A stretch of 38,098 bases of DNA from an uncultured virus (IMG/VR IMGVR_UViG_2061766007_000025) (taxonomy: Duplodnaviria; Heunggongvirae; Uroviricota; Caudoviricetes): IMG/VR virus record IMGVR_UViG_2061766007_000025. One strand, 5' to 3'. The number at the start of each line of letters is the position of its first letter. Within the stretch, counting starts at the first letter, position 1. Positions 2,607 to 19,994 of the stretch are shown here, piece by piece. The position numbers and the translations under genes are program-made. The notes beneath the pieces were generated by a model, which was given only the letters and a program-made list of their open reading frames with translations, was not told the DNA's origin and ran no database searches.

Positions 2607-4691
2607 CTACTCTGTCCTTCTTCTACTCCTACCGTCAAATATAAATGGACTCTTAGATTCCTTACTAGCTTTAAGTTTCTGTCTATCTTTGAAATCCTTC
2701 TCATAATCAAATCCTTCACGAAGTTCTTCAGGAATAAATGAAATAGGATATTTAACAGGATCTCTATTAAAGCTAATAGGAGAAACTATATTCTTTCTAA
2801 CCTTCTTAAACTTAAGTCTACGTCCAATAGCCTTCAAGAAAGTATTAGCAATTTCTGCACTTCTATTTCTAGAGTCAGAATCCAAACGTACATCGATTGT
2901 AAATGGGTCTTCTGTATACATCTGTTCAACTAGTCTTCTACCCTGAGGTGATAAACTATGAATCATCATATTAGCTATAACTACTTCAGCTCCTAAGTGA
3001 TTCATGTTGTTAGTCTCCATGTTACCGAATCGAATTGGTGTATTTGGATATAATTCTTTATAATCTTTTCTAGCTCTAGACTTAATATTTTCATTCCTAA
3101 TATTTGTAGCTGATAATGATGTTGCACTATATTTTTCTTCGGCATACTGCTTTAAACGGAAGACATATTGCTTTCCGATTAGTATAGGCTTTCTAGATTT
3201 TATATATCTTGGTTGTCCGTTAGAACCAATCATTACAACTTCTACATCTGTCAGTTTTACAAATGGAAATGCTTTATAAATATCTGCAAGTTTATCTATT
3301 GTCATTGTATCTGATATAGGCCTCATAGATAAGAATATACTACCAGAGTTTATAATAGATTCTATATAGAAAGCTAATTCATCTCTAGTAGATTCGCTCT
3401 TCATATATTCTAGATATTCACCTTGCTGAGGAGAACACATAGAAGTATATTTATATATAAGACTATATGCTTCATCTAAAGAAAGATTATCGGTTACTAT
3501 CTTATTGATTATCTCTGTACCTATATGAGTAAGAGATAATTCAAATAACTGTCCTACATTCTCTCTTCCATACATGGTAGATGTGTTAAAGATAATATCG
3601 GCGTATTCATATTCACCTTTAGAATTCTTAAATCTTGGCATATATATCTGAGGCCACACGTCCGAAACAATTCCTTTACCGCCATATCTGTTTGCTGCTT
3701 TATCTCCAGGACCCATAGTCTTTTCTTCTAAGACTGTTATAGTCATAGTAATAAAGCTGAAATTCTTTTTATCTATATACTGTTTCTTCTCGCATACATC
3801 TTTAGCATAGTCATATAACTTAGTCAATTCATATGAGAATTCATAACCCTGGCTAATATATGGTAATAATGTCTGTACAAACTCTGTAGATTGTCTTTGT
3901 AATTCATTATAATATAACTTTAACTGAGCATAATAGTGATTCTCTAACAACTCAGGATTATTGCAATAAATATCTACATCTATAACTTTTCCATGAACCT
4001 GTTTACATTCATCAGACATAGTTATATTTCTTAATCTATCTACAGACTGATTATAGTAAGACTCTTCTTTCTTCTCTTTTCTTAATGCAATAAGATTAGC
4101 ATTTACTATAGGCTCACCTATATCTGGGAATATCTTATACTGTTTATCATCACCATAAATATTCAAAGGAATATCATTATCATTTATCATGATCTTTACC
4201 GGTTTGATAAGAGGAGATGTAAGTTTACCAGCTGCCACATCAGAGAATATAATCGAGTCTTCCATATTAGAGTCTAGATTATAATAACAAACATTAAAGT
4301 TTCTACCATCTGTTCTGTTCTCATATTCATCGAATGCTAAAGACTTTTGCATTCTAGTACCTTCAGTTACTATATCACTAACATTTAATGAATCTAGATA
4401 ATCATTATTATAAAGATAACCATAAGATTCAGTTACGTACTGATAACTTATTCTTTCAATAACTTCAAGTTTATTAGCATGAATATCTTTTAGTATAAGC
4501 CAATAATGATGATTAGGAGCAAAACTAAATTTAGATATTTTAGCTATAACTTGATAATCTGCTTTTGCTTCAGTAATAGAAGAAGATAAATCACCATATC
4601 TTTGTTCATATCCAGTACTGATTACTGGCATTTCTCCACCCATCAAACCAAGGATATGACTTCTATGAACTGAGTGCATGATTTTTCTTGC
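2607..4691 (-). CDS. phage multisubunit RNA polymerase beta subunit, C-terminal half (probably non-virion RNAP), exon 2
   Basis: GDKAANRYGGKGIVS (RpoB GDK..RHGNKG), DIIFN, RLKQYAEEK, PIRFGNME (RpoB GQRFGEME). Frame is open upstream of the listed Met to GCA AGA AAA ATC (ARKI) at 4691. Confidence 0.9.
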   Translation of the reverse strand, partial: ARKIMHSVHRSHILGLMGGEMPVISTGYEQRYGDLSSSITEAKADYQVIAKISKFSFAPNHHYWLILKDIHANKLEVIERISYQYVTESYGYLYNNDYLDSLNVSDIVTEGTRMQKSLAFDEYENRTDGRNFNVCYYNLDSNMEDSIIFSDVAAGKLTSPLIKPVKIMINDNDIPLNIYGDDKQYKIFPDIGEPIVNANLIALRKEKKEESYYNQSVDRLRNITMSDECKQVHGKVIDVDIYCNNPELLENHYYAQLKLYYNELQRQSTEFVQTLLPYISQGYEFSYELTKLYDYAKDVCEKKQYIDKKNFSFITMTITVLEEKTMGPGDKAANRYGGKGIVSDVWPQIYMPRFKNSKGEYEYADIIFNTSTMYGRENVGQLFELSLTHIGTEIINKIVTDNLSLDEAYSLIYKYTSMCSPQQGEYLEYMKSESTRDELAFYIESIINSGSIFLSMRPISDTMTIDKLADIYKAFPFVKLTDVEVVMIGSNGQPRYIKSRKPILIGKQYVFRLKQYAEEKYSATSLSATNIRNENIKSRARKDYKELYPNTPIRFGNMETNNMNHLGAEVVIANMMIHSLSPQGRRLVEQMYTEDPFTIDVRLDSDSRNRSAEIANTFLKAIGRRLKFKKVRKNIVSPISFNRDPVKYPISFIPEELREGFDYEKDFKDRQKLKASKESKSPFIFDGRSRRRTE

Positions 4692-5114
4692 AAAATTATT
4701 TACTATAAGCTGTATTAATTCTTATAGCGAGATTATAAAAATCTCCACTAGTATTACCTAGTGATTAGACTATTTGGCATCCCTATATAAATAGGGTCGA
4801 GGATTTTTCTTCCACCATTGTATACTTGTGGTTTTACTCTCCCGTCAGGAGATAGTCGTTGAACGTATTTGGATATTGTGTAAAACCAAATGTCGCTGCA
4901 ATAACGGGCCTAGTATTGAAGTTTAGGACTACATATACTCAAGATAATGTAGCTTTTATTTCACCATGCTTCATCTCTACGTTTTTTCTACTTTCGTACA
5001 TTTACGTTTATACTTCATTACACTTTGTATTCCGCTTTAGTGTAGAGCTTTAAGCCTTTACCTGCATTTAACCCTCATGAAACGCACTCATTACTGAATA
5101 CGCTGAGCAAGCAC
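4692..5114 (-). ncRNA. group I intron (IA2-like, no ORF) in the RNAP beta gene; boundaries +/-1 nt
   Basis: On the minus strand: P2 GCGTATTCA-GTAA-TGAGTGCGT; P3 GAGGGTT/AATCCTC; P AAATGCAGG; R GTTCAACGACTATC (about 4851-4864); P7.1 and P7.2 hairpins; P8; S AAATAGTCT; three P9 hairpins. Removal restores LQPFNNLNAG-ARKIM, aligning with RpoB IPFLEHDDANRALM. Confidence 0.88.
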
Positions 5115-5225
5115 CCCTGCATTTAAGTTATTGAATGGCTGCAATAAACCAGTACCACTCATTTCTTCTAGACTTTTAATATTCTTAGAAGCTTCATTGA
5201 TCTTATCTGTAAAATTTAATGCCAT
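5115..5225 (-). CDS. RNA polymerase beta C-terminal-half subunit, exon 1 (37 codons)
   Basis: AAGGAG RBS then ATG at 5225: MALNFTDKINEASKNIKSLEEMSGTGLLQPFNNLNAG; same frame as exon 2. Confidence 0.85.
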
Positions 5226-5242
5226 GATAGTTCTCTCCTTGA

Positions 5243-5467
5243 TTATTTATTTCTATATATAATTCTGCCATTCTCAAGGTTAGGATCTAATACACTTAAA
5301 TCTACTGTGACATTATCACCTTTTACAATCTTAATAGAGTTTAATCTCATCTTCCCACTGAGATTACATGTACATACATGCCCATTCTCTAAACGTACTT
5401 TAAACTTAGCACCTTTAAGTACATCTATGACTTCTCCTTTAATTTCAAATCTATCAGGACTTGCCAT
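5243..5467 (-). CDS. infA: translation initiation factor IF-1
   Basis: EIKGEVIDVLKGAKFKVRLENGHVCTCNLSGKMRLNSIKIVKGDNVTVDLS...GRIIYR closely matches bacterial IF-1; 74 aa. Confidence 0.95.
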   Translation of the reverse strand: MASPDRFEIKGEVIDVLKGAKFKVRLENGHVCTCNLSGKMRLNSIKIVKGDNVTVDLSVLDPNLENGRIIYRNK

Positions 5468-5487
5468 ATATTTTCATTCACCCCCCT

Positions 5488-5940
5488 CTACTTTTCTCGT
5501 AGATAAAATGTTAATTGATATGAAGGTTTCTCTTTATGATTAGGATGTGTGGCATAATGCTCTTCATAGAAATCTATTGTTTCTATATGGAAATTATGCT
5601 TTATATCATAATTATATACTTTTAAATTATCTTTTTCTCGTATATATTCTGGAAATTCCTTCATAAGCATAAATATATTATGAAATAAATCTTCATCCTG
5701 ATATATAATTTTGTCATCTTTAGAAAAATCTAATGGTTTATTATCCTTACCTAAAATAACTAATTTAGAATCTTCTATTTTTGGTATTACCATAGTGAAT
5801 ACACAGCGTGCTTTAGCTTGCATTCTTTTTAATGAAATATTTTTGATCTTATCGATCGATACATAGTATTTTTCATTATGCATTGGACATATAATCTTCA
5901 TTTCTGCAAACCCTTTCAATATACAATTACTTTTATCCAT
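5488..5940 (-). CDS. hypothetical protein
   Basis: 150-aa ORF; no motif recognised. Confidence 0.6.
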   Translation of the reverse strand: MDKSNCILKGFAEMKIICPMHNEKYYVSIDKIKNISLKRMQAKARCVFTMVIPKIEDSKLVILGKDNKPLDFSKDDKIIYQDEDLFHNIFMLMKEFPEYIREKDNLKVYNYDIKHNFHIETIDFYEEHYATHPNHKEKPSYQLTFYLREK

Positions 5941-5971
5941 GCAAATATATAATATATTATTTTAATATCGT

Positions 5972-7225
5972 TTACTCTTCATCTCTTATACCCATATTGG
6001 TTATAAGACTATTAATATTAGATGAAGCTAAACTTTCATCTGCTGACTGGATTTTTGTAGAAGAAAGTAAAGGTTCAAGCATATTAAATACTTCTTTAGC
6101 GAATACTTCCTGTAAATCTGGATTAGACTCTAATACTTCTTTGAAATTCTTAAGTGAAAACTTTACATCTTCACAACCTTCAAATCTAAGATTAGCACCA
6201 ATACCAGATATTCTACCTTCCTGTTTAAGCATATGAAGTAAAGATAAGATATTATCGAAATGACCATTAGTCTTATCAAAGATTAAACTTATACTTCTTC
6301 TTGTAGCATTAGTTCTAGATTTAATAAGGGTTACATCTACAACTTTACCAATGATTCCATAAGCTTCTTCTTTCTTTAAAGTAGTCTTTTCATCAAGTCT
6401 GAATATATTATTTGCAAGATATACTACAGTCTGAGCGCCAGCAAGTCTTTCATCTGTTTTTAAACCATCAACCTGTGACTGAGTAGGTAAGAATCCTAAC
6501 TGAGGTCTTGGAAGAATATGATTTACTGTAAAAATAATAATATTAGCTGCTTTAGCTAACTGATTGATCTTCTTAAATAACATAGTATTCTGTTTAGCTA
6601 CAGACATACCAGTTGCATTAGTTCCGAGATCATCACCTTCAGATATATCTTCTGGCATAAGCATAGCTATAGAGTCTATAACATATACAGTTGGAACTAA
6701 CTTATAGATTCTATTACCAAATGTATCAAATAAACCTGTATCATATGTATAATCTTTAGCATTAGTAATCTTCTCATTAGCAATGACAGATATTCTTTCA
6801 TATACATTCTCTGTAGTAATACCAGTATTTCTAATATCAACATGGTGCTCTAACTCTTCTGGAGTCATCTGTAATAAGAACTCTCTTCTTGATTGAGGAA
6901 GACCACCCTCAATATCATCAATAAATAAGTTTGCATCATAACCTTGTCTAATAAATGGAGTTACGATAGAAGATGCACACTGAACTATTAATGTAGATTT
7001 ACCTGCACCTGATCTGGCAATAAAAGAATTAGAAGATCCATCTACGATACCAGCAGAAACATAACTAAAGTTTCTCTTTTCAGACCTTACATATATTCTC
7101 TGTCCATTAAGCATATCAAGAGCATTAAATCCAGTAGGATACATTACATCAAAGGTAGCATCATTATCAGCACCTTTAACTTTAGATTTAGAAATAGTCT
7201 TAGAAAAGTTATCTAATAATCCCAT
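5972..7225 (-). CDS. uvsX: RecA/UvsX-like recombinase
   Basis: PTGFNALD, Walker A ARSGAGKST, IDDIEGG, Walker B YVIDSIA, IFTVNH, LIKSR. Confidence 0.88.
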   Translation of the reverse strand: MGLLDNFSKTISKSKVKGADNDATFDVMYPTGFNALDMLNGQRIYVRSEKRNFSYVSAGIVDGSSNSFIARSGAGKSTLIVQCASSIVTPFIRQGYDANLFIDDIEGGLPQSRREFLLQMTPEELEHHVDIRNTGITTENVYERISVIANEKITNAKDYTYDTGLFDTFGNRIYKLVPTVYVIDSIAMLMPEDISEGDDLGTNATGMSVAKQNTMLFKKINQLAKAANIIIFTVNHILPRPQLGFLPTQSQVDGLKTDERLAGAQTVVYLANNIFRLDEKTTLKKEEAYGIIGKVVDVTLIKSRTNATRRSISLIFDKTNGHFDNILSLLHMLKQEGRISGIGANLRFEGCEDVKFSLKNFKEVLESNPDLQEVFAKEVFNMLEPLLSSTKIQSADESLASSNINSLITNMGIRDEE

Positions 7226-7230
7226 ACTTC

Positions 7231-7458
7231 TTAAACAATCTCCTTTGCATTAATAATAATTGGCGAAGTTACCAATAGTGGTGGACCGGAAGAATTTACG
7301 AATTTAATAAGTGCTACTTTAGGAACTCTATATTTATTTCCTACACGAACACTTTGTAATTTTCCAGATTCTAATAATCTGTAAACAGTATTCTTTCCGG
7401 TGTTTAATGCTTTCTGTACTTCACATACACTAAGCATATCAGGATACTGTTCAAACAT
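7231..7458 (-). CDS. excisionase-like helix-turn-helix (HTH_17) DNA-binding protein
   Basis: PDMLSVCEVQKALNTGKNTVYRLLESGKLQSVRVGNKYRVPK matches the HTH_17 pattern; RBS GGAGGG. Confidence 0.85.
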   Translation of the reverse strand: MFEQYPDMLSVCEVQKALNTGKNTVYRLLESGKLQSVRVGNKYRVPKVALIKFVNSSGPPLLVTSPIIINAKEIV

Positions 7459-7506
7459 GTTATATCTTCCCTCCTTTGATTAAATTGCGTTAAATCGTAT
7501 TATATT

Positions 7507-7518
7507 TAATTATCTGTT
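7507..7518 (-). promoter_or_regulatory. AR9-type late promoter AACA-N6-TA
   Basis: minus strand AACA GATAAT TA upstream of the HTH-recA genes. Confidence 0.55.
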
Positions 7519-7547
7519 CCCATTATGGTAATTTTTAACAAAGGATA

Positions 7548-7577
7548 TCCCTCTACTCATTTTATAGAGTAGAGGGA
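7548..7577 (-). terminator. intrinsic terminator hairpin
   Basis: TCCCTCTACTC/GAGTAGAGGGA 11-bp stem just after the stop of 7584..8462. Confidence 0.7.
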
Positions 7578-7583
7578 ATCTAT

Positions 7584-8462
7584 TTAAATGGTTGCATTAT
7601 TAGCTTTTCTTAAAAAGCTTTCACATCTGTTATGATTTATTACATAGAATGCATCTATCTTCATAACAAATTTTAAATACTGAGTAAGAAACATAACTTT
7701 CTTCTTAATAAGTTCCACTAAGCTTTGTCTTTCTGCTTTGTCTTCATCTAAATTCTTAGTACTTATAGCTAGTAAATCTTGAATGCTTTCTATCTCGCCT
7801 TCTCTAGCTATATTATTCTTATTAAGTTCTATTTCTTTTAATCTAAATTCCGCCTGTCTTAAATCTGCTTTAGCTTCATTTACAGACATATTAACTTTAT
7901 CTACATATCCATCATGAACCTTTTTAATACTAGGATCTATTTTAATATATTGATACATGTTTATCTTATATTCTTTATTATCTATATTGAAATTTGATGC
8001 GTATGTATCGCAGAAAGATTTAATCTCTTCTGGTTTATTTCTGGAAAATATATCGTCTACTGCATGAAAATAAGTTTCTGATTTAGATAAAAAAGAAACA
8101 GTAGATGGTGAAGGAACTTCTTTTTGTAAGAATTCTCTTAATTCATCTAATGATGCTGATTCATGCATAGGAAGAGCTTTAATAGTTCTCTCTACATTAT
8201 TAAACTCTTTCTCTAAGTTATCATGATTTCCTACAAGTTTATCTTTTAATTTCTTAAAGAATCCAACAACTGTTTTAGTAACCCATTCTATAAATTCTTT
8301 AATTTTATCTATTATAGTATGTAATATAGATATAGCTTTTTCTTTTATAGTTTCTTTGATAGAACCTTCATTAAAAACAAAGTCCTCTTCAAATAATCCA
8401 CTAGATTCACATATAACATTAGCAAGATAATCTAGATCTAATGCTGCTGTATAAATTCCCAT
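7584..8462 (-). CDS. putative internal head / virion protein (jumbo-phage type)
   Basis: Start placed at ATG 8462 after AAAGGAG. Acidic N-terminal segment (…CESSGLFEEDFVFNEG) followed by amphipathic helix IDKIKEFIEWV…FFKKL, as in processed phiKZ-type head proteins. Confidence 0.45.
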   Translation of the reverse strand: MGIYTAALDLDYLANVICESSGLFEEDFVFNEGSIKETIKEKAISILHTIIDKIKEFIEWVTKTVVGFFKKLKDKLVGNHDNLEKEFNNVERTIKALPMHESASLDELREFLQKEVPSPSTVSFLSKSETYFHAVDDIFSRNKPEEIKSFCDTYASNFNIDNKEYKINMYQYIKIDPSIKKVHDGYVDKVNMSVNEAKADLRQAEFRLKEIELNKNNIAREGEIESIQDLLAISTKNLDEDKAERQSLVELIKKKVMFLTQYLKFVMKIDAFYVINHNRCESFLRKANNATI

Positions 8463-8521
8463 AATACTGATCACTCCTTTATATAATGTCATTATATATA
8501 AGTGGATGAAACAAAAAATAA

Positions 8522-8549
8522 ACCACTATGGGGGTTAGCCCATAGTGGT
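8522..8549 (-). terminator. intrinsic terminator
   Basis: ACCACTATGGG/CCCATAGTGGT stem followed by a U-run on the minus strand. Confidence 0.75.
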
Positions 8550-9473
8550 ATCTTCTTCTTTAATTTCTTCCTTAATACCATACTTATATAGATTCATATA
8601 ACTACGTCTTGTACAGTCTTTCATATAATCGACACGTGCTAATATTTTAAATGAGAACTCGATAAATTTATCAGTATATAAGATACCCTTTAAAATATAT
8701 GAGTAAAATAGATTATCTGTTGGTCCTTCTTTTATAAGAGTACGCTTTTCTTCTAAGAGTTTTAACAGGATATCAAAATAGTTATTAAAGAACTTATTCA
8801 ATGTTTCATTAGCTGTATCTAATGCATCTTTATCGGTCTTAATAGTCAATGCCGCGTACTCAAAATTATCAAATTTGTAATTTGTCCATTCAGGATTAAA
8901 ACCATAAATATCATCATCAAAATCCTCAAAACCATCAAATAATGCTTTTAAATGATATACATGACCCTCACAAATGGATCTATAGCAATAATAATCTTGA
9001 TAAGAAACATTATCAAATCCTGCAGTAATAATTTCTGCAATTTGATTAAGCTTTTCTATATAATCTGATATGCAAGCTATATAACCATGAAGATTATATA
9101 AGTCTATAGTTATTTCTGTATTTGGAGTGAATAACTTATCCTTAAGAGTTTTCTTCTCTTTATCTAAAACCTCAGGCTCATCATTATTCTCATTAAGATG
9201 ATATACTCTATCTTCTTCTTTAAAAGTAGCAGTCATATTACCATTCTCATCAGAAGTTAAAGTCATATTCTTATAATCTGCATATCCTTCATTATTCTGT
9301 TTTATTCCTTCAAACTCCTTTTTTACGCCTTCAAATTCTTCTTTTAATTCATGATATTTTTTCACATTCTTTTTAGCTTGAGTAATTATAAATATCTCGA
9401 ATCTAGATAAACCATTTGGCCATCTTATTGGCTTACTACCGTTCAATATTTTCTTTAAGCTCATCAATCTCAT
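8535..9473 (-). CDS. hypothetical protein
   Basis: 312-aa ORF overlapping the upstream gene by 38 nt. Confidence 0.65.
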   Translation of the reverse strand: MRLMSLKKILNGSKPIRWPNGLSRFEIFIITQAKKNVKKYHELKEEFEGVKKEFEGIKQNNEGYADYKNMTLTSDENGNMTATFKEEDRVYHLNENNDEPEVLDKEKKTLKDKLFTPNTEITIDLYNLHGYIACISDYIEKLNQIAEIITAGFDNVSYQDYYCYRSICEGHVYHLKALFDGFEDFDDDIYGFNPEWTNYKFDNFEYAALTIKTDKDALDTANETLNKFFNNYFDILLKLLEEKRTLIKEGPTDNLFYSYILKGILYTDKFIEFSFKILARVDYMKDCTRRSYMNLYKYGIKEEIKEEDTTMG

Positions 9474-9930
9474 CCTTATACTTCTCCTTTATCATTACAA
9501 TTTCAACTACATTTAAACACCTCATAATGACATGATCGTTTAATAATTTTGTTGCTATTTCTGCTGCTTCATATAATGGTCTAATATTTTTATCATCAAT
9601 CATACAGCAAAATAAATAAGATGATACGAAATTAGATTTTTCAATAACAAATAAATCTGTATTTCTTAATATAAAATCAGAAGTAGGATCATTGCGAGAA
9701 ACATGCTGATTGAAAGCTTCTTCACTTTCTATATAACTTTGTAGTATTGCTAATAAAGAAAATTCACATGTACTATATGCTTTTGTACTTTCATCTTCAG
9801 AATTTATATTATTTTTAGCAGTTATACCATATCTGAGAATATCTTTTAAAATAGTAATCTTTGCTTTCTTAACTAAAGTTTCTCTTAAAATAGTAGTCTT
9901 TACTTTCTTATCTAAAGTTTCTCTATCCAT
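9436..9930 (-). CDS. hypothetical protein
   Basis: 164-aa ORF with AAGGAG RBS. Confidence 0.7.
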   Translation of the reverse strand: MDRETLDKKVKTTILRETLVKKAKITILKDILRYGITAKNNINSEDESTKAYSTCEFSLLAILQSYIESEEAFNQHVSRNDPTSDFILRNTDLFVIEKSNFVSSYLFCCMIDDKNIRPLYEAAEIATKLLNDHVIMRCLNVVEIVMIKEKYKDEIDELKENIER

Positions 9931-9959
9931 AGCAACTATAACTCCTTATATTTCTCCTT

Positions 9960-10430
9960 TTATTTAGATTTATAAGAATTCATTCTAGTATAATCTGGTT
10001 GAATTGTGGTTTTTAAATTATCTGGAAATTTACATAAATTACTATTATTAGCTTCCCAATATAATCTTATAACCCTCCATACTGAAAACTCTGGATCTTG
10101 CTTTGATGGTTGTCTAAGATATTTATCTAATATCTTGCATTGACTAGAATTTAATACTCCTTCATACTTTAATCCATGAGGAAAGAAATTTGGACTATAA
10201 ATGCATATACAAGTTTCAAATGAATGATCAGGTTTAAATATATGGAAATGAGGAATAGTACCTTCATTAGAATATACTTCTACCTTACATTCACCTAAAG
10301 ATTTTAAATTTAATCTTGTTTTTCCGCTAAATTCTGCTTCTTGTAATAATGTATCTGGAAATATTATAGTTCCTATATACCAAACTTCTATGTCATGATG
10401 CCCTTCAGGTATATATTTTTCTTCTTTCAT
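9960..10430 (-). CDS. DUF4160-like protein (PHFH motif)
   Basis: VEVYSNEGTIPHFHI resembles the DUF4160 motif; RBS AGGAGG. Confidence 0.5.
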   Translation of the reverse strand: MKEEKYIPEGHHDIEVWYIGTIIFPDTLLQEAEFSGKTRLNLKSLGECKVEVYSNEGTIPHFHIFKPDHSFETCICIYSPNFFPHGLKYEGVLNSSQCKILDKYLRQPSKQDPEFSVWRVIRLYWEANNSNLCKFPDNLKTTIQPDYTRMNSYKSK

Positions 10431-10513
10431 TTTTAATTCCTCCTTAAAACTTTCTATAAATATTATATATGATTATTATTTACAATATGTACATCTACTG
10501 GGCAAAATCAAAC

Positions 10514-10525
10514 AACATTGTTATA
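10514..10525 (+). promoter_or_regulatory. AR9-type late promoter AACA-N6-TA
   Basis: AACA TTGTTA TA about 70 nt upstream of the tail sheath ATG. Confidence 0.7.
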
Positions 10526-10596
10526 AATGATAAAGAATCATCTTTAAACAAGAAAGATCTTTATTTAAGAAATATTTATATAAAGGAGGAAACAAT

Positions 10597-12441
10597 ATGT
10601 ATCCTGGTGCTTTAGTTGCCAACTGGTATGATCAATCAGAATTGAATATTGCTACCGAAACTCCGGATCTTACAATTAAACCTTTATTTATGGTTGTATC
10701 TAGTTTTGATAAAGGACCTGAAGATTTAAGAGAAATTGATAGTGATGACTTTAAAGATTATTATGGCACACCAACATTTGATAAGCACGGTCAGAATGGT
10801 ATTCAGGCTCAGCGTATTATTGATGCAGGTGGAACACTTCTTGTTAAGCGTATCTGTGCTCCTGATTCAACAATAGCAAACGTTGTTCTTAGTGCTAAAG
10901 TTACAAAAGTTCAGACTCAGAAAGTTGATGCTGAAGGTCATCCGCTTTATCTTGATGCTGAAGGTAATGAAACTACTTCTCCAGTTGATGAAGAGGATAA
11001 TCCAAATACACCTATTATGCTTGATAGTGTTAAGGTAAAATGGGAAGCAACCTCTATTTCAAATTGCAAGACATTTGAAGAAGTTAAAGAAGCTGCTCTT
11101 GATCTTCTTGATATTGATGCTGGAGTATATCCGTTATTCTTATATGTAGATAATGGTAGAGGACTTTCATCTAAGGCAGTAAGACTCATTCCTGATTATA
11201 ACACATCTAAGGGATTTGGATTTATGTTCTATGATCTTAAGATCTATGAAGGAACAAATATCGCAGAAGATGAGACTGTGACGATGGATCCATACATTGT
11301 TTACAATAATACTGCTTATGGCATTGATAAAGGTACATGTAAACAGATTGATGCTTTAGTTGATATTGATGTTTACAATGCATATCTTGAGAAAATAGCT
11401 GAGATTCTTGATCTCGATACAGCTACTGTTAGAACATATGACCTTGTTTATGGTTATGATTGTAAGGGTGCTGCTATTCCTGACTTTGCAATTGATGCCG
11501 AATCAGTAGACCTTAATGCTACATTTGGTGTTGAACTTAAGAACGGTTCAAATGGTAGCTTTGGTGATGCTCCTGCTGGAACACCTGCATGGGTTGAAGA
11601 GATTCGTAAAGTATTTGCTGGAGAAATTACCGATGATGTTTGGGATGTTGATGCTCATAAGGTTGCAGTTATTTGTGATGCTGCTTTCCCTGTAGTAATT
11701 AAAGATACTATTGCCGATTTTGTAAACTTCAGACAGGATTGTGTATTCTTTAGAGATTATGGTCTTAATATTGCTACATTTACAGATATTAGGATTATGT
11801 ATAATACTCTTATAAAGAGAAGTAAATTTATCGCTGATTATTCTACAGCTTATACAATTAAAGATCCTTCAACAAAGAAGAATATACAAGTAACAATGAT
11901 GTATGATCTTGCTGCTTGTCTTGTTGGACACTTTGATCGTGGATGTCAGAATCCATGTGCAGGTATTGCAAATAGCTTTGTTCTTGATAATGCTATTAAA
12001 GGTACTCTCAATTTCAGACCTGTTGTTACACCTGCTACAAATCAGAAGAGTGCTATGGAAGATATTCATGTTAACTATGCAGACTTCAATGAAGATCAGT
12101 GTGTAGTTCAGACATGCTTTACTTCACAGGAAGCTAATACAGAGCTTAGTTATGTTAATAACGTTCTTGCAATTCAGGAAGTTATTAGAGCTCTTAGAAC
12201 ATATTGCCCAAGACAGAGATATAGACTTGTTACTGGAACTGATCTTTCAGATTATGCAAGAGCATGTACAAATGTTATCGAACCATATCGTAGTCATTTT
12301 GCAGTTCTTAACTTTACATATACTGAAGATAAGATCAAGTCAGCTCAGAAGATTTTCTATGCTTCTATTGAATTTGCATTCAATCAGTGGGCACAGACTG
12401 AAATCTTTGATATCTTTGTACTTAATTCTGGAAACTTATAA
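10597..12441 (+). CDS. tail sheath protein
   Basis: 614 aa; MYPG start, DKGPE, YYGTP, FRQDC, and C-terminal VVQTCFTSQ...LSYVNNVLAIQ...R sheath-like motif; followed by a tube-like gene. Confidence 0.85.
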   Translation: MYPGALVANWYDQSELNIATETPDLTIKPLFMVVSSFDKGPEDLREIDSDDFKDYYGTPTFDKHGQNGIQAQRIIDAGGTLLVKRICAPDSTIANVVLSAKVTKVQTQKVDAEGHPLYLDAEGNETTSPVDEEDNPNTPIMLDSVKVKWEATSISNCKTFEEVKEAALDLLDIDAGVYPLFLYVDNGRGLSSKAVRLIPDYNTSKGFGFMFYDLKIYEGTNIAEDETVTMDPYIVYNNTAYGIDKGTCKQIDALVDIDVYNAYLEKIAEILDLDTATVRTYDLVYGYDCKGAAIPDFAIDAESVDLNATFGVELKNGSNGSFGDAPAGTPAWVEEIRKVFAGEITDDVWDVDAHKVAVICDAAFPVVIKDTIADFVNFRQDCVFFRDYGLNIATFTDIRIMYNTLIKRSKFIADYSTAYTIKDPSTKKNIQVTMMYDLAACLVGHFDRGCQNPCAGIANSFVLDNAIKGTLNFRPVVTPATNQKSAMEDIHVNYADFNEDQCVVQTCFTSQEANTELSYVNNVLAIQEVIRALRTYCPRQRYRLVTGTDLSDYARACTNVIEPYRSHFAVLNFTYTEDKIKSAQKIFYASIEFAFNQWAQTEIFDIFVLNSGNL

Positions 12442-12464
12442 TTTGAGAGAGGAGGAAAATAAAC

Positions 12465-13406
12465 ATGGCTAATACAACTGGAAATAGTGGAATTCTTAAT
12501 GATTATACAATTAGACCTCGAAACCTCACTCAGTATACAGCGTTCAGAGGTATCACAGACTTCTCACAGATTGGACAGTTTGCTCAGTATGAAGGTGGAT
12601 ATGCATTCCTTAGTGTAATTGAGGCTCCTAGATTTATCACAGAGCTTGGTAAACAAAATGATGGTGTTAAGGCACTTACACAGTCATTTACTCATATGCT
12701 TGAGATGGAATTTAGAGGTCTTGATGGACTTCCAGATCTTAATGCTGATTTTAATACTATCTCAGATGGTATTAATGAAGTTTCTCTTATTAGTAAGGTA
12801 AATAGGGATACTTCAGTTACTGTAAGTATGAGTTACTTTGAGAAAACTGGTTCTCTTATTACCAAATTCTCTAATTACTATCTTACAGGTATTAAAGATC
12901 CTTATACTCAGGCTAAGACATATCATGGTCTTATTAGAGATGGTGTAATGGCTCCTGGCCCTGAGAATGAAGTATTCACAATGCTTTATTATGTAACCGA
13001 TAGCACAATGTGTCGTCTTGAAAAGGCTATACTTCTCTGCAATGGTCAGCTTACAAAAGCTGAAGAGTCCATTTACAATGGTCAGAGATCTGATATTGGT
13101 ACTAATAAAGAAATGACAATTGAGTTTAACTGTTATCCTATTCAGGGTCTTGAAGTTGATAAAGCTGCATGGACACTTCTTAGAGATATTACAGGTACTC
13201 AGTGGACAAGTGATGCTGGTGTTATGGCTACTGGTAAGATGTTTGCTACTGGTACAACTATGTACAAAGATGCCAATGGTATCAATAGACCTATTGCACC
13301 TCTTGATTCTACAGATTATAGATTTGCTATTCTTAACAAAGATAATCCTGATAGAATTCAGTCACTCGTTGATGCTGCAGATAAAGCTCCAAAGCTTAAA
13401 AAGTAA
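12465..13406 (+). CDS. tail tube protein
   Basis: 313 aa directly after the sheath; beta-rich, with YFEKTGS..TK...YYLTGIKDP, as expected for a jumbo-phage tube protein. Confidence 0.7.
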   Translation: MANTTGNSGILNDYTIRPRNLTQYTAFRGITDFSQIGQFAQYEGGYAFLSVIEAPRFITELGKQNDGVKALTQSFTHMLEMEFRGLDGLPDLNADFNTISDGINEVSLISKVNRDTSVTVSMSYFEKTGSLITKFSNYYLTGIKDPYTQAKTYHGLIRDGVMAPGPENEVFTMLYYVTDSTMCRLEKAILLCNGQLTKAEESIYNGQRSDIGTNKEMTIEFNCYPIQGLEVDKAAWTLLRDITGTQWTSDAGVMATGKMFATGTTMYKDANGINRPIAPLDSTDYRFAILNKDNPDRIQSLVDAADKAPKLKK

Positions 13407-13413
13407 TTGTAAT

Positions 13414-13450
13414 ATAGGTGGTGGGACGCAAACCCCACCACCTATTTATT
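13414..13450 (+). terminator. intrinsic terminator
   Basis: ATAGGTGGTGGG/CCCACCACCTAT stem then TTATT. Confidence 0.8.
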
Positions 13451-13466
13451 CGGTTTTGATTCTCTC

Positions 13467-13478
13467 AACACAAAATTA
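13467..13478 (+). promoter_or_regulatory. AR9-type late promoter AACA-N6-TA
   Basis: AACA CAAAAT TA between the terminator and the next gene. Confidence 0.55.
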
Positions 13479-13525
13479 ATAAACTATAGCATTTTGGGCT
13501 ATAAATACACTATGATAGGAGGGAA

Positions 13526-14206
13526 TTGGTCAAATTTATGAAACCTAATAGCATCAATATCTTCTGCTTTGTTTCTAATATCATTAATGGTCAGACTAAT
13601 TATATCGATTCCATCTTATCTGATAAGAAGTTTGTAAGAAAAACACAATTATCTAAATTAGTATATGGTACAACCAGAAAAGATTATCAAAATAATAAAG
13701 AGTTCTATTATGTTCCATTAAAGGAATATAATGATGTAACTCAAAATGATGATCTTGTGGAATTTAGGTCGTATTATATAATACCAGATGGTGATGTGTA
13801 TTTCTTTACAAAGAAATCAGATATAGTAAATGCTAAAACAAATAACTTAATCTGTATCTGTACGCCATATCAGTATGAGAATTATAGAACTTGGTGTTCT
13901 CTAGAGAATATTAAAAGAATTAATTCTTACAACCTTAACCTTGTTATAATAAATGCTGATATGAAATCCGTATTTGAAGAACAACTAGCTAAAACTAAGA
14001 CTAGATTAGAGATACTAGAATTATGTAGACAAGTTATGCAAGATGATGCTGAGTTTGAAGATGCTAAGAAAAGGTTTCCAGAATTCATAGATCCAATGTC
14101 TTGTAGTAACGTATGTATGGTAAGTGATTTTAAATCAGATATTGCGGGTTTTAACGCCAATCTTGAGAAGATCAAAGGGTTTATACTAGAGATGACTAAA
14201 AAATGA
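13526..14206 (+). CDS. hypothetical protein
   Basis: 226-aa ORF with GGAGGG RBS; start TTG 13526 or ATG 13538. Confidence 0.7.
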   Translation: MVKFMKPNSINIFCFVSNIINGQTNYIDSILSDKKFVRKTQLSKLVYGTTRKDYQNNKEFYYVPLKEYNDVTQNDDLVEFRSYYIIPDGDVYFFTKKSDIVNAKTNNLICICTPYQYENYRTWCSLENIKRINSYNLNLVIINADMKSVFEEQLAKTKTRLEILELCRQVMQDDAEFEDAKKRFPEFIDPMSCSNVCMVSDFKSDIAGFNANLEKIKGFILEMTKK

Positions 14207-14225
14207 CGTTTTTGACTATTATACC

Positions 14226-14259
14226 TTTGTAATAGCCCGAGTTTTCGGGCTTCTACAAA
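14226..14259 (+). terminator. hairpin, probable terminator
   Basis: TTTGTA..AGCCCGA/TCGGGCT..TACAAA. Confidence 0.5.
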
Positions 14260-14294
14260 TGGTTATTTAAAATTTTAAGGAGGAAATGTAATTT

Positions 14295-16739
14295 ATGGCC
14301 GTACTCAAACCAAATTCTACCATTTATTCAGAGGCTAATAATGGTAATGAAATATCACAGTCTATGAATAGAAAGATAAATAAAAAATTAGATATACTTG
14401 ATCAAAAAATGGATTCATTATATTCTGATATTTATATATCTAGGCCAGATAATAGGAAAGACCTTGACAATATTATCGATAAATTAGATTCCTCTATTGA
14501 TAGTTTGCAATCTAATGATGTCAGTATATCAGGTCTTTCTGAATTATTAAGAAGAATAGAGCAGAAGAATAACTATACTGCTAAAGATCTGGCTGCTTCA
14601 GTAGAAGATTTATTTAATGATCAGAATTTATTGAATACCTTATTTATGAATGAGGATGTTCATAGATATATATCAGGACAAAATTATCAATATGATCTTA
14701 TATGTAAATATCTTCCTAAATTAGATGATGCTTTACAGTTAATGAAGGATAATGTATTAAGTTCAGATACATTCTCTAAGAACTTTTTGAATCCTATATC
14801 TGTAAAGACATCTAAAGATGAGGTGCAAGTATTTACTGCTAATACTAAACGTATAGAAAATGAGTATGATATATCTACATTCTTCGAAGATACTTATGAT
14901 AAAACTTCCAAGTATGGAGAAGATTTTATTTATGTTGTACCTTATACTTTAGCATTCCAGAGATTATTAAAGAGAGCTAATTATAGAAGAAACAATGCTA
15001 GATTAGGCCAGATTACTTTCTATGAGAATACTGATATACCTAATAGTAATAGAAAGTATGCTTTTAAAGATGCAGTACAGTGTTTATCAGAAAACTTTAC
15101 AGAATCTACCGATTATAAGAATTATCTTAAATCGGTACAAGAGTCTTATCCTGTAGAATTAACTGATAATAAAGAAAATAAGTTTACTGTTGGTGCAGTT
15201 AATCTTCACTTTAATGATACCAATATAGTATTGGATAAAGTAAATGAAATGGCTATACTAACAGAAAAAGCAGATTTAGAAAGATTTGCATCTTTAACTT
15301 CTATATTTGAAAGCTCATTAGCTATTAATAATCTTAGAGAAGCTAAAGGAGATAAATTAAATTCTGTATTTGGAGATCTTGGTAAGAAGAATAAACTATC
15401 ATCTGCTTCTAATGATGGTTTAATTATTCCTGCAGAATTAAATAGAGATCCTGATAAGATAGATAAAGATTTCAATGGTGCAGTATTAGAGAGGTTGCCT
15501 AGAGAAAATGTAATTCCTGTTTATATCGGTAAGAGATGTATGGGATATTATTATTTTGATTTTAAAGAAGATGAAGGAGCCTGCGGATACTGTGGTGGCC
15601 ATCATATGACTCCTGGTATATCTAATGCACAAAACTTTGCTTATGAGCAAACTTATGATCAACAAGAATTAGCTATAAGATATGTGGCATCTAGAATATC
15701 TGCTAATATAGATACTCACTTTATAAATGCTAATAAAGATCTTAAAGAAGAAATATATGCTATTCTTATGTATAATGATAAGTTTGATCTTTCTAGAACT
15801 AATGATATTGGTGTATCATTTATCCCAGCTGAAGATATTATTCACTGTTACTTTAAGTTAGATGAGCATACCCATCGTGGTATATCAGATCTTCAGAAAT
15901 CTTTAGTTCCTGCTATGCTTTATATATTATTATATCTTACAGATATTATTACAAAGATTACTCGTTCTACAGATAAGAGAATCTATTATGTAAAGCAGAA
16001 TGTAGAGACTAATGTTGCCAGAACAATGATGAATGTTGTTCAACAAATTAAGAAGGGCAATATGGGAATGCGCCAAATTGAGTCTATGAATAATATTCTC
16101 AATATCATTGGTAAATATAATGACTTTATTATCCCTGTAGGACAGTCTGGAGATGCTCCTATATCATTTGAAGTTATGAATGGTCAGAATATAGAAACTC
16201 CTACTGATTTAATGCAGCAGATGGAAGAAGCTGCAATTAATCCTATATGTCCTTTAGAGTTAGTAAATTCTTCTTTCCAGCAAGATTTTGCTACCAGATT
16301 TACAATGTCTAATACAAGATTCTTAAAGAAGATATTTGCTAGACAAAGAATAACCCAGAAGTTCTTCTCTAGAATATATACTAAGGTTTATAATTATGAA
16401 TATAATGAGAATTACTCTTATATAACTATTATACTTCCACCTCCTACATATCTTACAGTAACTAATACTCAGCAGATGCTTGATAGCGTTAATCAATTAG
16501 CTGATAAGATTACAGATATAGAGATGGCAGGAGAAGAAGATGATATTAAGACAGAGTTTAAGAAGTTATATGCTAGACAAATGCTTAGTACATATATGGA
16601 CTTTGATATGGTAGAAAGACTAAAAGAAAAAGCTGCTATAAATGTAGAGATGAATAAAGAACCTGTTACAGCTGATGGATCTAATAGTGAAATTAATCCA
16701 GAAGGAGAAGCTGGTACAGGAGATGAATTTGAGTATTAA
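14295..16739 (+). CDS. portal protein
   Basis: 814 aa; KRIYYVK…VVQQIKK and NDFIIP…PISFEVMNGQ echo T4-type portal motifs; lies upstream of the terminase. Confidence 0.75.
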   Translation: MAVLKPNSTIYSEANNGNEISQSMNRKINKKLDILDQKMDSLYSDIYISRPDNRKDLDNIIDKLDSSIDSLQSNDVSISGLSELLRRIEQKNNYTAKDLAASVEDLFNDQNLLNTLFMNEDVHRYISGQNYQYDLICKYLPKLDDALQLMKDNVLSSDTFSKNFLNPISVKTSKDEVQVFTANTKRIENEYDISTFFEDTYDKTSKYGEDFIYVVPYTLAFQRLLKRANYRRNNARLGQITFYENTDIPNSNRKYAFKDAVQCLSENFTESTDYKNYLKSVQESYPVELTDNKENKFTVGAVNLHFNDTNIVLDKVNEMAILTEKADLERFASLTSIFESSLAINNLREAKGDKLNSVFGDLGKKNKLSSASNDGLIIPAELNRDPDKIDKDFNGAVLERLPRENVIPVYIGKRCMGYYYFDFKEDEGACGYCGGHHMTPGISNAQNFAYEQTYDQQELAIRYVASRISANIDTHFINANKDLKEEIYAILMYNDKFDLSRTNDIGVSFIPAEDIIHCYFKLDEHTHRGISDLQKSLVPAMLYILLYLTDIITKITRSTDKRIYYVKQNVETNVARTMMNVVQQIKKGNMGMRQIESMNNILNIIGKYNDFIIPVGQSGDAPISFEVMNGQNIETPTDLMQQMEEAAINPICPLELVNSSFQQDFATRFTMSNTRFLKKIFARQRITQKFFSRIYTKVYNYEYNENYSYITIILPPPTYLTVTNTQQMLDSVNQLADKITDIEMAGEEDDIKTEFKKLYARQMLSTYMDFDMVERLKEKAAINVEMNKEPVTADGSNSEINPEGEAGTGDEFEY

Positions 16740-16750
16740 TATAAATAGAT

Positions 16751-16788
16751 GGGTCACTGTTACAAGCAGTGACCCTCTTTTATTTTTT
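16751..16788 (+). terminator. intrinsic terminator
   Basis: GGGTCACTG/CAGTGACCC stem plus T-run. Confidence 0.85.
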
Positions 16789-16800
16789 AACACTATAATA
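16789..16800 (+). promoter_or_regulatory. AR9-type late promoter AACA-N6-TA
   Basis: AACA CTATAA TA immediately after the terminator. Confidence 0.6.
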
Positions 16801-16887
16801 ATTAAAAATAGATCTTATGACAAAAACAAAAAGTAAATAACGTATTTTTTAATATTGAGAAAATATTAAAGAAAGGAGTTATGCTTT

Positions 16888-17406
16888 ATGGATGAAGTTA
16901 CATGGCTGCAGGTTGTCAGTTGGATCTGGGACCATATATTACAGATAGTAGTAGTATTATCAATATTCTTTGAAGTATCAAAGATAAAATTAAATCCTAT
17001 CAGTTGGTTGATGAATTCATTATTTAAACCAATTAGAAAAGATATGGCAGATATGAAGAATGAACTCAATACTAAGATTGATAAAATGGGAGCTGATCTT
17101 AAAGAAGAAATTGAATCACTTAGAGCTCAGCAATCTGCCGATATGGATAAAATTAATAGCTTAATAGAAGCTACGGAAATGTCAGACATATCCAGAATTA
17201 GATGGGAAATTATAGAATTCTATAATTCTATAGAGAATGATCATAAACATAGAAGAGATGAATATCGTCATATTAAAGATGATTATAGACGATATCAAGA
17301 TCTTATTCCTAAATATAAATTGCAGGATTCTACCATCGATGAAGATATGAAGAAAATTAATGAACGTTATGATGCTAATATAAATAGCCCATCTGTCTAT
17401 ATTTAG
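16888..17406 (+). CDS. membrane-anchored, holin-like / lysis-module-associated protein
   Basis: N-terminal TM helix (ILQIVVVLSIFFEV), KIKLNPISWL, coiled coil, RIRWEIIEF; resembles a family common in Clostridia phage lysis modules. Confidence 0.55.
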   Translation: MDEVTWLQVVSWIWDHILQIVVVLSIFFEVSKIKLNPISWLMNSLFKPIRKDMADMKNELNTKIDKMGADLKEEIESLRAQQSADMDKINSLIEATEMSDISRIRWEIIEFYNSIENDHKHRRDEYRHIKDDYRRYQDLIPKYKLQDSTIDEDMKKINERYDANINSPSVYI

Positions 17407-17436
17407 TTTTTGGTAGCCATATTATTTTCTCACACT

Positions 17437-17474
17437 TATTCCCTTACCAGGAATGGTAAGGGAATATTTGTTTC
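17437..17474 (+). terminator. intrinsic terminator
   Basis: TATTCCCTTACCA/TGGTAAGGGAATA stem plus TTTGTTT. Confidence 0.75.
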
Positions 17475-17511
17475 TTACATACTGCACTTTAAAGTAATAG
17501 GAGGTGTTTTT

Positions 17512-18933
17512 ATGGCAGTAGTACAACAACTGCAAGCACCAAAGTTTGTCTATATTCATATGGAGACTTCCAATCAGTCTTTTCTAGATATGAAATATTA
17601 TCTTAAGTCTAAGGGTATACAAAATAATGATTTCTTTTTATCATTATTAGACCCTGGACTGGCAGGAGTAGATCCTAGAGACCCTACTTTATCTACAGCA
17701 ATGAAAGCTAGAGTAATGAATGAATGTAGATTAAATTATTGGTATTTTCTAAGAGAAGTAGTTCGTGTACCGGAACAAGGTGGAGATGTTAATAGTGGTA
17801 AGAGATATAAACTAGATCGTGGTAATCTAGCAATGAATTTCTTATTTGTATTAAATTTCAACCAGTTTGTAGAATTACCTCGTCAGTTTGGTAAAACTAC
17901 TTCTGCAGTAATAAGGTATCTATGGTGTTACAACTTTGGTACATCTAACTCGGAGATTATGTTCTTACATAAAGATCATACAGGATCTAAAAATAACTTA
18001 AAGAGATTAAAAGAGATTCGTTCTGCATTACCATCATACTTGCAGATGGATTCATTAACAGGAGTAGATGGTAAGAAATTAAAAGTTCCAAATACCATAG
18101 TACAAATAGAGCATCCATTTAATAAGAACAAGATTACTACATTTCCTAGTGCAAGAGCAAAAGAGGCTGCAGATAACCTTGGTCGTGGTGCTACTATGCC
18201 TTTACAATACTATGATGAGTTTGCATTTATTCCTTATAATAAAATTGTATACTTAGCAGCAATCCCTGCATTTTCTACTGCATCTAGAAATGCTAAAGCT
18301 AATGGTGCTCCTTATGGTGTATTATTAACTACAACACCAGGAGACTTAACTACAGATTCAGGTTTATATGCATATGAAGAAAGAAATAAAGCAACTCCAT
18401 GGAATGAGAACTATTATGATCTTACAATACAAGAATTAGAGCAATTAAGAGACTCTAATACAAAGAGTTCATTCTTCTTAGTATCATATACATATCAACA
18501 GTTAGGTGCTGGCCCAGAATACTTCAGAAACATGGTAGTACAAATGGGTCAAAACTGGCCAGAGATTAGACGTGAAGTTATGCTCGAATGGGCACAAACT
18601 TCTAATAACTGTCCATTTAGTGTTGAAGATTTGGATACTATAAAGAGATATTGTAAAGATCCTATACGTACAATATTATTTGGTAGATATAAGCAGTATC
18701 AATTCCAAATATATGAAGATGTAGATACTAACTATCCTCCAATAATAGGTGTCGATGTAGCAGGAGCTCTCATGCGAGATTCAAGTGCTATTACAGTAGT
18801 AGACTCTCATACAACAAGAGTTACAGCAGCTCTTAACTGTAACTATATGCCTAGTGATGACTTAGCAGATGTATTATATGAACTAATAACAAAATACTTA
18901 CCTAACGCTGTGTGCCAGATCGAACGCAACGGA
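17512..18933 (+). CDS. terL: terminase large subunit, exon 1
   Basis: ATG 17512 after GGAGGTG; Walker A LPRQFGKT, Walker B YYDEFAF, LTTTPG, RNase H-like IGVDVAG…DSSA, ending IERNG. Confidence 0.92.
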
Positions 18934-18967
18934 GCAAAGGAATGGAGATATAAATTATAACATTAAT

Positions 18968-18979
18968 AACATCTTTATA
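18968..18979 (+). promoter_or_regulatory. late promoter AACA-N6-TA for the intron HNH gene, overlapping an RBS-sequestering hairpin
   Basis: AACA TCTTTA TA; hairpin CTTTATAATAA-AATA-TTATTATAAAG (18973-18998) overlaps AAGGAG. Confidence 0.7.
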
Positions 18980-19009
18980 ATAAAATATTATTATAAAGGA
19001 GAGTTATTT

Positions 19010-19591
19010 ATGTTTAAAGAAATACCTGGTTATGATGGAAATTATAAGATTAATGAAGCCGGTGTAATACTTAATAAAAAAGAACACATGATGAGACCTA
19101 TAATAACAGATAATGGTTATCTTAGAACCGCTTTAGAAATATATGATGAAAATGGTAAACTTATAAAAAGAAATAATGAATTTGTACATAGACTGGTAGC
19201 AAAAACTTTTATACCTAATCCAGATAATCTTCCAATTGTTATGCATTTGGACAATGATACACTTAATCCATGTGTAACTAATTTAAAATGGGGAACTCAA
19301 AAAGAAAATGTTGAGCAGTGTGTTAAAGAAGGAAGAAATAGATGGGGTAGATATTCCGAAGGAACAAGATCATCATTATTTTATAAACAATGCGGTTCAC
19401 CATATAGTATTTATAATAATAAAGAAACTATCTATTGTAGTAATAGAAATGAAGTTGCACTTAGGATAGAGTATGAACTTGTAAGTTTAAAAAATATGGT
19501 AGGTAATGGAAGAGTTATTTCTAAAGGTCCATATCAAGGCTATCAGATAAAAAGAGAAAAATCAGTACCAGCTTTTTTATTTAATAATTAA
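19010..19591 (+). CDS. NUMOD4-HNH homing endonuclease (I-HmuI-like)
   Basis: FKEIPGYDGNYKINEAG (NUMOD4); VHRLVAKTFIPNPDNLPIVMHLDNDTLNPCVTNLKWGTQKEN (HNH_3). Confidence 0.92.
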   Translation: MFKEIPGYDGNYKINEAGVILNKKEHMMRPIITDNGYLRTALEIYDENGKLIKRNNEFVHRLVAKTFIPNPDNLPIVMHLDNDTLNPCVTNLKWGTQKENVEQCVKEGRNRWGRYSEGTRSSLFYKQCGSPYSIYNNKETIYCSNRNEVALRIEYELVSLKNMVGNGRVISKGPYQGYQIKREKSVPAFLFNN

Positions 19592-19994
19592 AATTTATAT
19601 CTCTATGAAGTCTCAGTATATAAAGTAATTTGTATATTCTCCTGTGTTAAAACTGTGAGTTACTGGTCAAGAGCCTTAATAACTACAACATAATCTGCAA
19701 AGATAAGTGTGATATGTTGCGAAAGCAGAAAAAATATTAAGGATGAGTATATGGTTAAATCCTAAGTACTTATTAACAAGCCAGCGTACAGTTACGAAAT
19801 ATCTATTTATATAGATATACGTCTAACGACTATCCCTTAGCGAGGGAGTAAAGCCGCAAGCTAATGGCGGAAGAAAAATCCAGCTCCTTTATTTTTATAT
19901 AAAGGATGTACATATAGTCTGGTCACGTCTTGTAATGAGAGTGATTGTGGAAATGACCACAAATTATAGAGTTGCGCCTATAATTAAACTAAAC

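Follow-up and report, generated by a model that had tools for sequence, protein, structure and literature searches.

Two related group I introns of an uncultured phage, with a predicted 5' splice site after a G paired with C

Results

Two interrupted genes and the limits of their introns

The DNA analysed here (the window) is a stretch of 38,098 nucleotides from an uncultured virus (IMG/VR record IMGVR_UViG_2061766007_000025), and its subject is a pair of related introns that interrupt two genes, encoding the C-terminal half of an RNA polymerase (RNAP) beta subunit on the minus strand and the large terminase, terL, on the plus strand. The window is AT-rich phage DNA for which no close relative was found among deposited phage genomes, and the phage is probably a giant one, since homologues of the window genes are located on metagenome contigs reaching about 260 kb. 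The predicted layout of the two genes is as follows.

5114..5225, minus strand: exon 1 of RNAP beta (C-terminal half), 38 codons from the start at 5225, ending ...AAT GCA GGG G
4691..5113, minus strand: RNAP intron, 423 nt, no open reading frame (ORF), terminal (omega) G at 4691
2607..4690, minus strand: exon 2 of RNAP beta, recognised by Pfam RNA_pol_Rpb2_6 (E 2.7e-15) and by homologues
17410..18934, plus strand: exon 1 of terL, ending ...AAC GGA G; the listed ORF begins at TTG and the true start may be later
18935..19995, plus strand: terL intron, 1061 nt, omega G at 19995
19996..20816, plus strand: exon 2 of terL, recognised by terL homologues

The translation of RNAP exon 1 (MALNF...QPFNNLNAG) agrees with the N-termini of uninterrupted homologues (...QPFNGxNAGARKIM), which have N-[AS]-[GS]-[AS]-R-K across the junction. 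Among the 97 full-length, pattern-matching proteins of 120 listed RNAP homologues, the motif is NAGA in 74, NSGS in 9, NAGS in 6, NSGA in 6 and NSSS in 2, and V follows N-[AS]-[GS] in none of them. The terL homologues read ...NAIINIERNGGFGVSVIQRL across their junction, with GG[FY] following E-x-N/K (E-R-N-G-G-F/Y-G) in 64 of 65 full-length proteins. Within each gene the phase-0 join (5115/4691 in RNAP with T as the last intron base, 18933/19995 in terL with C) and the join one base on (5114/4690 and 18934/19996, both with G as the last intron base) yield identical mRNA. Only joins equivalent to 5114/4690 and 18934/19996 reproduce the conserved residues, giving NAGARKIM in an open 731-codon frame for RNAP and IERNGGFGVS in an open 781-codon frame for terL. 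The intron limits proposed in the initial annotation (4692 and 19994) would make the introns end in T or C and are one base off; the corrected junctions are placed at 5114/5113...4691/4690 for RNAP and 18934/18935...19995/19996 for terL. That each insertion follows a Gly codon, as was also claimed there, is true of both genes, with the correction that the junctions lie one base past that codon. The 5' exons are thus predicted to end GGG G (RNAP) and GGA G (terL), and their last base is read as a G paired with a guide C because the homologue-defined joins combine with a terminal G.

Other joins were tried and rejected. A U-G wobble at the 5' splice site is regarded as a near-universal determinant of group I splicing, and a canonical P1 can be drawn for RNAP (GGGU with GCUC). 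When joined at G4691 it shifts the frame and meets a stop at codon 46, and when joined at C4690 it gives NAGV, with a valine seen in no homologue, and needs a terminal C. A 5' site after T5126 with a 3' site after G4703 has canonical U and G but translates to PFNNLNNFARKIM, where homologues read N-[AS]-G-[AS]-R-K. In terL, placing the 5' site after GGAGAT (18949), opposite GUCUC, would insert five extra residues into the invariant ERNGGFG motif, at odds with the homologues.

Exon and guide covary among terL introns

For comparison, 80 terL loci were fetched from metagenome contigs. Both exons were present in 68 of them, uninterrupted in 42, with a 3-nt shorter motif in 5, and separated by an intron at exactly the same codon in 21; 5 loci showed exon 1 only and 7 had no usable match. 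In the 21 introns and that of the window, the base preceding the exon-2 GG varies (T 14, C 5, G 3), and therefore the common terminal G is the first G of the GGN codon and the 5' exon ends ...GGN G. By the homology-defined join, an omega G terminates both window introns (G4691, G19995) and each of the 21 other terL introns whose exon 2 could be seen.

The guide of the terL introns is C-N-C, followed directly by a 2-nt spacer and then the P2 stem, and the identity of its middle base goes with that of the synonymous third position of the Gly codon:

exon end GGA-G with guide CUC: 11 introns, script-scored
exon end GGT-G with guide CAC: 12 introns, script-scored

Exon base -2 and the middle guide base covary in 23 of 23 script-scored introns, and in 25 of 25 with two more (L061 and L135) read by eye; three IMG/VR terL loci are in this set. 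On the ribozyme tree each trait, exon base and guide base, changes at least 5 times, and in all three independent pairs on well-supported branches the two change together. Tabulating the -1 base against its guide partner, as had been proposed initially, gave G(-1)-C in 25 of 25 terL introns. Based on the terminal-G argument and this covariation, P1 is read as a 3-bp helix of G-N-G with C-N'-C that ends at the cut site with G(-1)-C.

On the other side of the junction, the first two P10 pairs are possible in 21 of 21 terL introns with exon 2 in view, and P10 position +2 covaries (C with G 8, U with A 7, U with G 6). Position +1 and its opposing guide base, scored in 23 terL introns, are C/U in 14, A/C in 5, U/C in 3 and U/U in 1, and a U-G pair at +1 occurs in none of these 23.

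The two introns share one group I architecture

The likeness of the two introns is real and far beyond chance, with a mean column identity of 74% over 472 columns of their intervening sequences. The five shared blocks that had been named at the outset (CGAAAGYAGAAAAAA, AACGACTATC, GAGTAAA, AATGGYGGAAGAAAAATCC and ATAGTCT) were all located in both introns, and the accompanying structural claims were borne out as well: in both introns CTCA (CUCA in the RNA) immediately precedes P2, a 10-bp hairpin capped by a GTAA loop, two P7.1/P7.2 hairpins with compensatory changes are followed by three 3' hairpins of the P9 type, and the exon ends GGG (RNAP) and GAG (terL) do pair with the guide CUC. Searched with an nhmmer profile of these introns, the window yields these two copies and no other; both are in the profile, so their scores hold by construction. 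The elements of the RNAP intron are:

5105..5116, minus strand: P1, exon GGG (5116-5114) with guide CUC (5107-5105), read from sequence
U5113 (+1) with G5108, minus strand: extension of P1 with loop GCUU (5112-5109), read from sequence
5108..5111, minus strand: P10 strand CUUG, complementary to exon 2 CAAG (4690-4687)
5081..5104, minus strand: P2 hairpin, 10 bp, GUAA loop, predicted in a consensus fold of 11 introns
4768..4857, minus strand: catalytic core with P7 (4857-4852 with 4773-4768), P7.1, P7.2, P3' and P8 (4796-4781)
4702..4763, minus strand: three P9-type hairpins, from sequence reading and the consensus fold

The ligated RNAP exons, GGG/CAAG, have full complementarity to CUUGCUC, and P3' (CCUC, 4802-4799) pairs with GAGG at 5076-5073. 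The core stretch 4768..4857 is 82% identical to the core of a Staphylococcus phage intron. As a separate observation, an exact 11-nt direct repeat, TTAAATGCAGG, forms the end of RNAP exon 1 (5126-5116, minus strand) and recurs at 5071-5061 (minus strand), where the second copy, inside the intron, is the GUUAAAUGC block that the family conserves immediately 3' of P3.

The terL intron is organised around a much larger P1 loop:

18932..18934, plus strand: exon strand of P1 (GAG), pairing with guide CUC at 19612-19614
18944..18956, plus strand: 5' strand of the P1-loop closing stem, which forms 13 bp with 19592-19604 (12 Watson-Crick, 1 G-U)
19010..19591, plus strand: ORF of 193 aa inside the P1 loop, a candidate HNH-type homing endonuclease
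19607-19611, plus strand: P10 strand GAAGU, pairing with exon 2 GUUUC (19996-20000)
19612-19614, plus strand: guide CUC
19615-19638, plus strand: P2 hairpin
19828..19919, plus strand: catalytic core with P7 (19828-19833 with 19914-19919), P7.1, P7.2, P3' and P8

Here P3' (19881-19883) pairs with 19642-19644. The ORF matches Pfam NUMOD4 at 21.7 bits (E 2.5e-4) and HNH_3 at 20.9 bits (E 2.8e-4), both just under the curated cut-offs.

Both introns carry the R and S elements of a group I P7, AACGACUAUC and AUAGUCU. Among relatives, P7 shows by eye a compensatory swap between GACUAU/AUAGUC and GAUCAU/AUGAUC, P3 covaries by eye (GAGG/CCUC, CUGG/CCAG, CAGU/ACUG, CGGU/ACCG, AUAU/AUAU, GUGU/ACAC), and so do the hairpins typical of subgroup IA2 (CUCC/GGAG versus CCCU/AGGG; CCAC/GUGG versus CCGC/GCGG). 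The double P7 swap to GAUCAU/AUGAUC, in the helix of the guanosine pocket, was seen in the terL introns L142, L150, L154, L162, L168, L169 and L171. Because the P7 and S elements are conserved, P3, P7, P7.1 and P7.2 show compensatory changes and there is kinship with described IA2 elements, both are assigned to group I introns of subgroup IA2 with a core of the Twort/IStron type. What departs from the group is the 5' cut site, where the two window introns and the full set of 25 terL introns have G(-1)-C in place of the usual U-G pair.

Relatives among phage introns and IStrons

The core of the window introns matches Staphylococcus phage introns by blastn at E 1e-21, and over P7-P7.1-P7.2-P3'-P8 it is 75-84% identical to Staphylococcus and Enterococcus phage introns, one of which falls in a SEP1 tail-lysin gene whose annotation joins two pieces. 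The exact core pattern occurs at 87 IMG/VR loci and at 121 loci in bacterial genome contigs. In this wider family the exon mostly ends GGG followed by T, with a guide CCC flanked by G or A, and the sequence fits a cut before or after the T.

An nhmmer profile of the terL and RNAP introns matched the IStron ribozyme of phage c-st at E 1.6e-31 over nearly its full length. This IStron shows the exon TTGGG/A..., a guide CCC followed by T and P2, an end at ...CGG/, and OrfA and OrfB just downstream. Among 38 IMG/VR loci related at the RNAP site, none has the window's intron and one (L191, a 178 kb giant-phage contig) has an IStron-like element, in which a ribozyme and a 421-aa TnpB (Pfam OrfB_IS605 and a Cas12f-like TNB domain; element at 600-2500) interrupt the RNAP gene at the codon of the window intron, with exon GGT G/T and guide G-CAC. 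A second ribozyme match lies further inside the same RNAP gene of that contig (3614-3897). Roughly 16-18 of the RNAP homologue proteins are N-terminally truncated.

A goat-rumen genome bin labelled Desulfovibrionaceae (JAFTDU01) contains more than 15 intron-core copies on different contigs (e.g. L216-L219, L224, L227, L231, L234, L251, L258, L259, L271, L288, L290, L291), and is either a case of intron-rich phage DNA binned along or an unusually intron-laden genome.

The proposed splice site weighed against its alternatives

From these comparisons I infer that both introns splice, and at the bonds given above. There is good reason to favour a reading in which the 5' site of both would be marked by a 3-bp P1 abutting P2 and cut after an exon G paired with C, with no U-G wobble. 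In this scheme the exon G-N-G would pair with the guide C-N'-C, free guanosine would attack after G(-1), the first bases of exon 2 would form P10 with the guide bases immediately upstream of C-N'-C, and the terminal G would enter the P7 pocket as the exons are joined. The initial annotation had argued for a real mechanism rather than decay or error, and the homologue-defined junctions, the terminal G, the 25 of 25 covarying terL introns and the identical contigs from other runs all speak for it.

Several points weigh against this. A 3-bp P1 is short. The canonical P1 of the RNAP intron (U5113-G5108) is excluded only by reading frame and residue conservation, and this intron is the single example of its kind at its site. 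The set of 25 includes (nearly) identical copies (L142, L145, L146, L149 and L150; L171 equals L173), and a sign test on the three independent pairs gives p 0.25 and cannot reach significance. Rfam RF00028 scored the cut-out RNAP intron at 10 bits (E 7.2) against a gathering cut-off of 50 and left the terL intron unmatched; on the whole window, Rfam gave nothing at gathering score or at E<=10. The Rfam group I model is weak on IA introns.

A register one base downstream is an unlikely alternative. Here the cut would follow the base after the G, giving RNAP a U5113-G5108 wobble and a terminal C4690, while in terL C would be mismatched with U and the intron would end on the second G of GG. The RNAP 5' side would become textbook, the frames would stay open (NAGVRKIM, ERNGAFG), and P10 would be equally good, being the same helix minus one pair. 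It would nonetheless need a terminal C in an RNAP intron whose P7 pocket sequence is ordinary, and would place valine at the residue where none of the 97 scored homologues has it. The pairs at the terL cut sites would then be the +1 combinations counted above (C-U, A-C, U-C and U-U; n=23), which have no common geometry, and the conserved second Gly of terL would become A, V, D or E. The related IStron BcISt1, moreover, has been shown to keep the U in the intron (PMC4227781).

It is very unlikely that the introns no longer splice, the genes being expressed as separate pieces or the copies decaying. Gene callers do annotate exon 2 of RNAP and of terL as separate proteins, splicing here has been deduced rather than observed, and a significant Rfam match is lacking. 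Against this stand a highly conserved core with compensatory changes that preserve P1, P3, P7 and P10 among relatives, an RNAP exon 1 of only 38 codons that holds part of the invariant motif, and exon pairs that are in frame in both genes.

That an assembly or sequencing error at the G run created a false non-canonical junction is highly improbable: GGG in place of GGGG would indeed give a canonical U(-1) and a terminal-G join reading NAGSRKIM, as found in some homologues, but an assembly slip at the GGGG run is ruled out by identical contigs from other runs of the same bovine gut sample, and G(-1) is likewise the rule in 24 further terL introns, which come from many other assemblies. In that check, X4 record 17 (covering 4971-5443) and X3 record 16 (covering 17893-19357) showed 0 differences each and include both 5' junctions; other-run contigs were identical over 4971-5443 and 5081-10131, with no indel listed at 5113-5117. 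Contigs of the source sample break within both intron cores (4859-5081 and 19767-19852), as a repeated intron family in a metagenome would cause.

Neighbouring genes

Directly upstream of RNAP exon 1 lies a 74-aa ORF resembling IF-1/eIF-1A (5243-5467, minus strand; Pfam PF01176, E 5e-18). The RNAP beta-like subunit is apparently split into separate genes at 5972-7225 and 2607-5225 (both minus strand), the former, upstream of the intron-bearing C-terminal half, being a 417-aa ORF with no Pfam match.

Discussion

The intron boundaries, the pairings with their covariation and the kinship with IStron ribozymes are established here, while splicing after G has been established by others, for BcISt1 only. 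The deviation of the two introns is most likely the same choice of splice site as that proven for BcISt1. It had initially been put down to either a G-C pair at -1 or a shifted register; the G(-1)-C pair holds in both introns, and the shifted register fits RNAP (U5113-G5108 at +1) but not terL, which has no U-G pair. More tentatively, and with slightly less than even confidence, the 5' site in the terL lineage (25 introns, with U-G at neither -1 nor +1) may be picked purely by position, as the end of a 3-bp helix stacked on P2, with a purine in a Watson-Crick G-C pair accepted. If this were true, the wobble would be dispensable in a natural ribozyme, and guide triplets could be re-aimed at G-ending sites, which was the trans-splicing idea raised at the outset.

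The shifted U-G pair accompanies the same ribozyme core in the RNAP intron and L191 and is missing from the terL lineage; the guide triplet of this core tracks a synonymous codon position, and the core serves as part of a transposon, as an ORF-less intron and as a homing intron. There is also a consequence for annotation: in giant phages of gut and rumen, tools that expect U(-1) will set the terL and RNAP junctions one base off.

Among known systems, the Azoarcus tRNA-Ile intron demonstrates that a 3-bp P1 suffices for a splice site. It resembles the window introns in that length and differs from them in ending with a canonical U-G wobble. The IA2 introns of the Twort/K type (Staphylococcus phages, Herelleviridae) share the P7-P7.1-P7.2-P3'-P8 core at the 75-84% identity given above; the window introns differ from the mapped Twort introns, which are cut after the U of a U-G wobble that belongs to a longer P1. 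Hur and Waring reportedly treated group I introns with a C-G pair or a C at the 5' splice site in 1995. The 'Leu.3Cg' tRNA introns are natural exceptions to the U-G rule with a Watson-Crick pair at the cut site, according to Williams (2020, bioRxiv 10.1101/2020.01.27.920355). Such C-G exceptions have a pyrimidine in the exon opposite a guide G, whereas the window introns have a purine, G, in the exon and C in the guide. Non-exhaustive word searches of open-access text returned no description of G(-1) in phage introns other than IStrons.

The closest likeness is with group B (IS607-type) IStrons, namely BcISt1 of Bacillus cereus and CbISt3 and CbISt4 of the Clostridium phage c-st, for which Tourasse et al. 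(2014, PMC4227781) describe IA2 ribozymes with P7.1/P7.2 and P9.0-9.2. These insert after AGGG, TGGG or GAGG, and in one case after AG; their last 5' exon base is G, where elsewhere it is 'virtually always a U (or exceptionally a C)'. The next U belongs to the element, and its U-G pair sits one pair off the splice site with the loop directly after. Reverse-transcription PCR and sequencing showed that BcISt1 splices after G in vivo, the U being kept in the intron. As this geometry was described in 2014 for IA2 ribozymes of the same core family, the two window introns do not form a new group I subclass, contrary to the initial suggestion. Why the group B ribozymes cut one base early is left open by Tourasse et al. 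(2014), and the window introns with their relatives provide a natural comparative data set on that question.

The window introns share with the group B IStrons the IA2 type, P7.1/P7.2, the three-part P9, a 5' exon G at a site ending in GG or AG (AGGGG/ and CGGAG/) and an exon triplet paired with a guide triplet next to P2. The +1 U-G pair followed by the loop is found in the RNAP intron (U5113-G5108, GCUU), whereas the terL intron has C facing U. They differ in ending ...UUUUG (RNAP) and ...AAACG (terL) rather than CGG, and neither contains an IS607/IS605 transposase ORF such as those of L191 and c-st; the terL intron has an HNH-type gene in its P1 loop instead, and the RNAP intron no ORF. They also differ in lying at fixed codons in essential genes of giant rumen phages, which suggests homing rather than transposition, and the terL intron probably spreads by homing. 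The window introns are a variant of a known oddity that goes beyond the 2014 paper in two ways, extending it to phage introns that are not transposons, ORF-less or HNH-bearing, and to a terL lineage without the shifted U-G pair.

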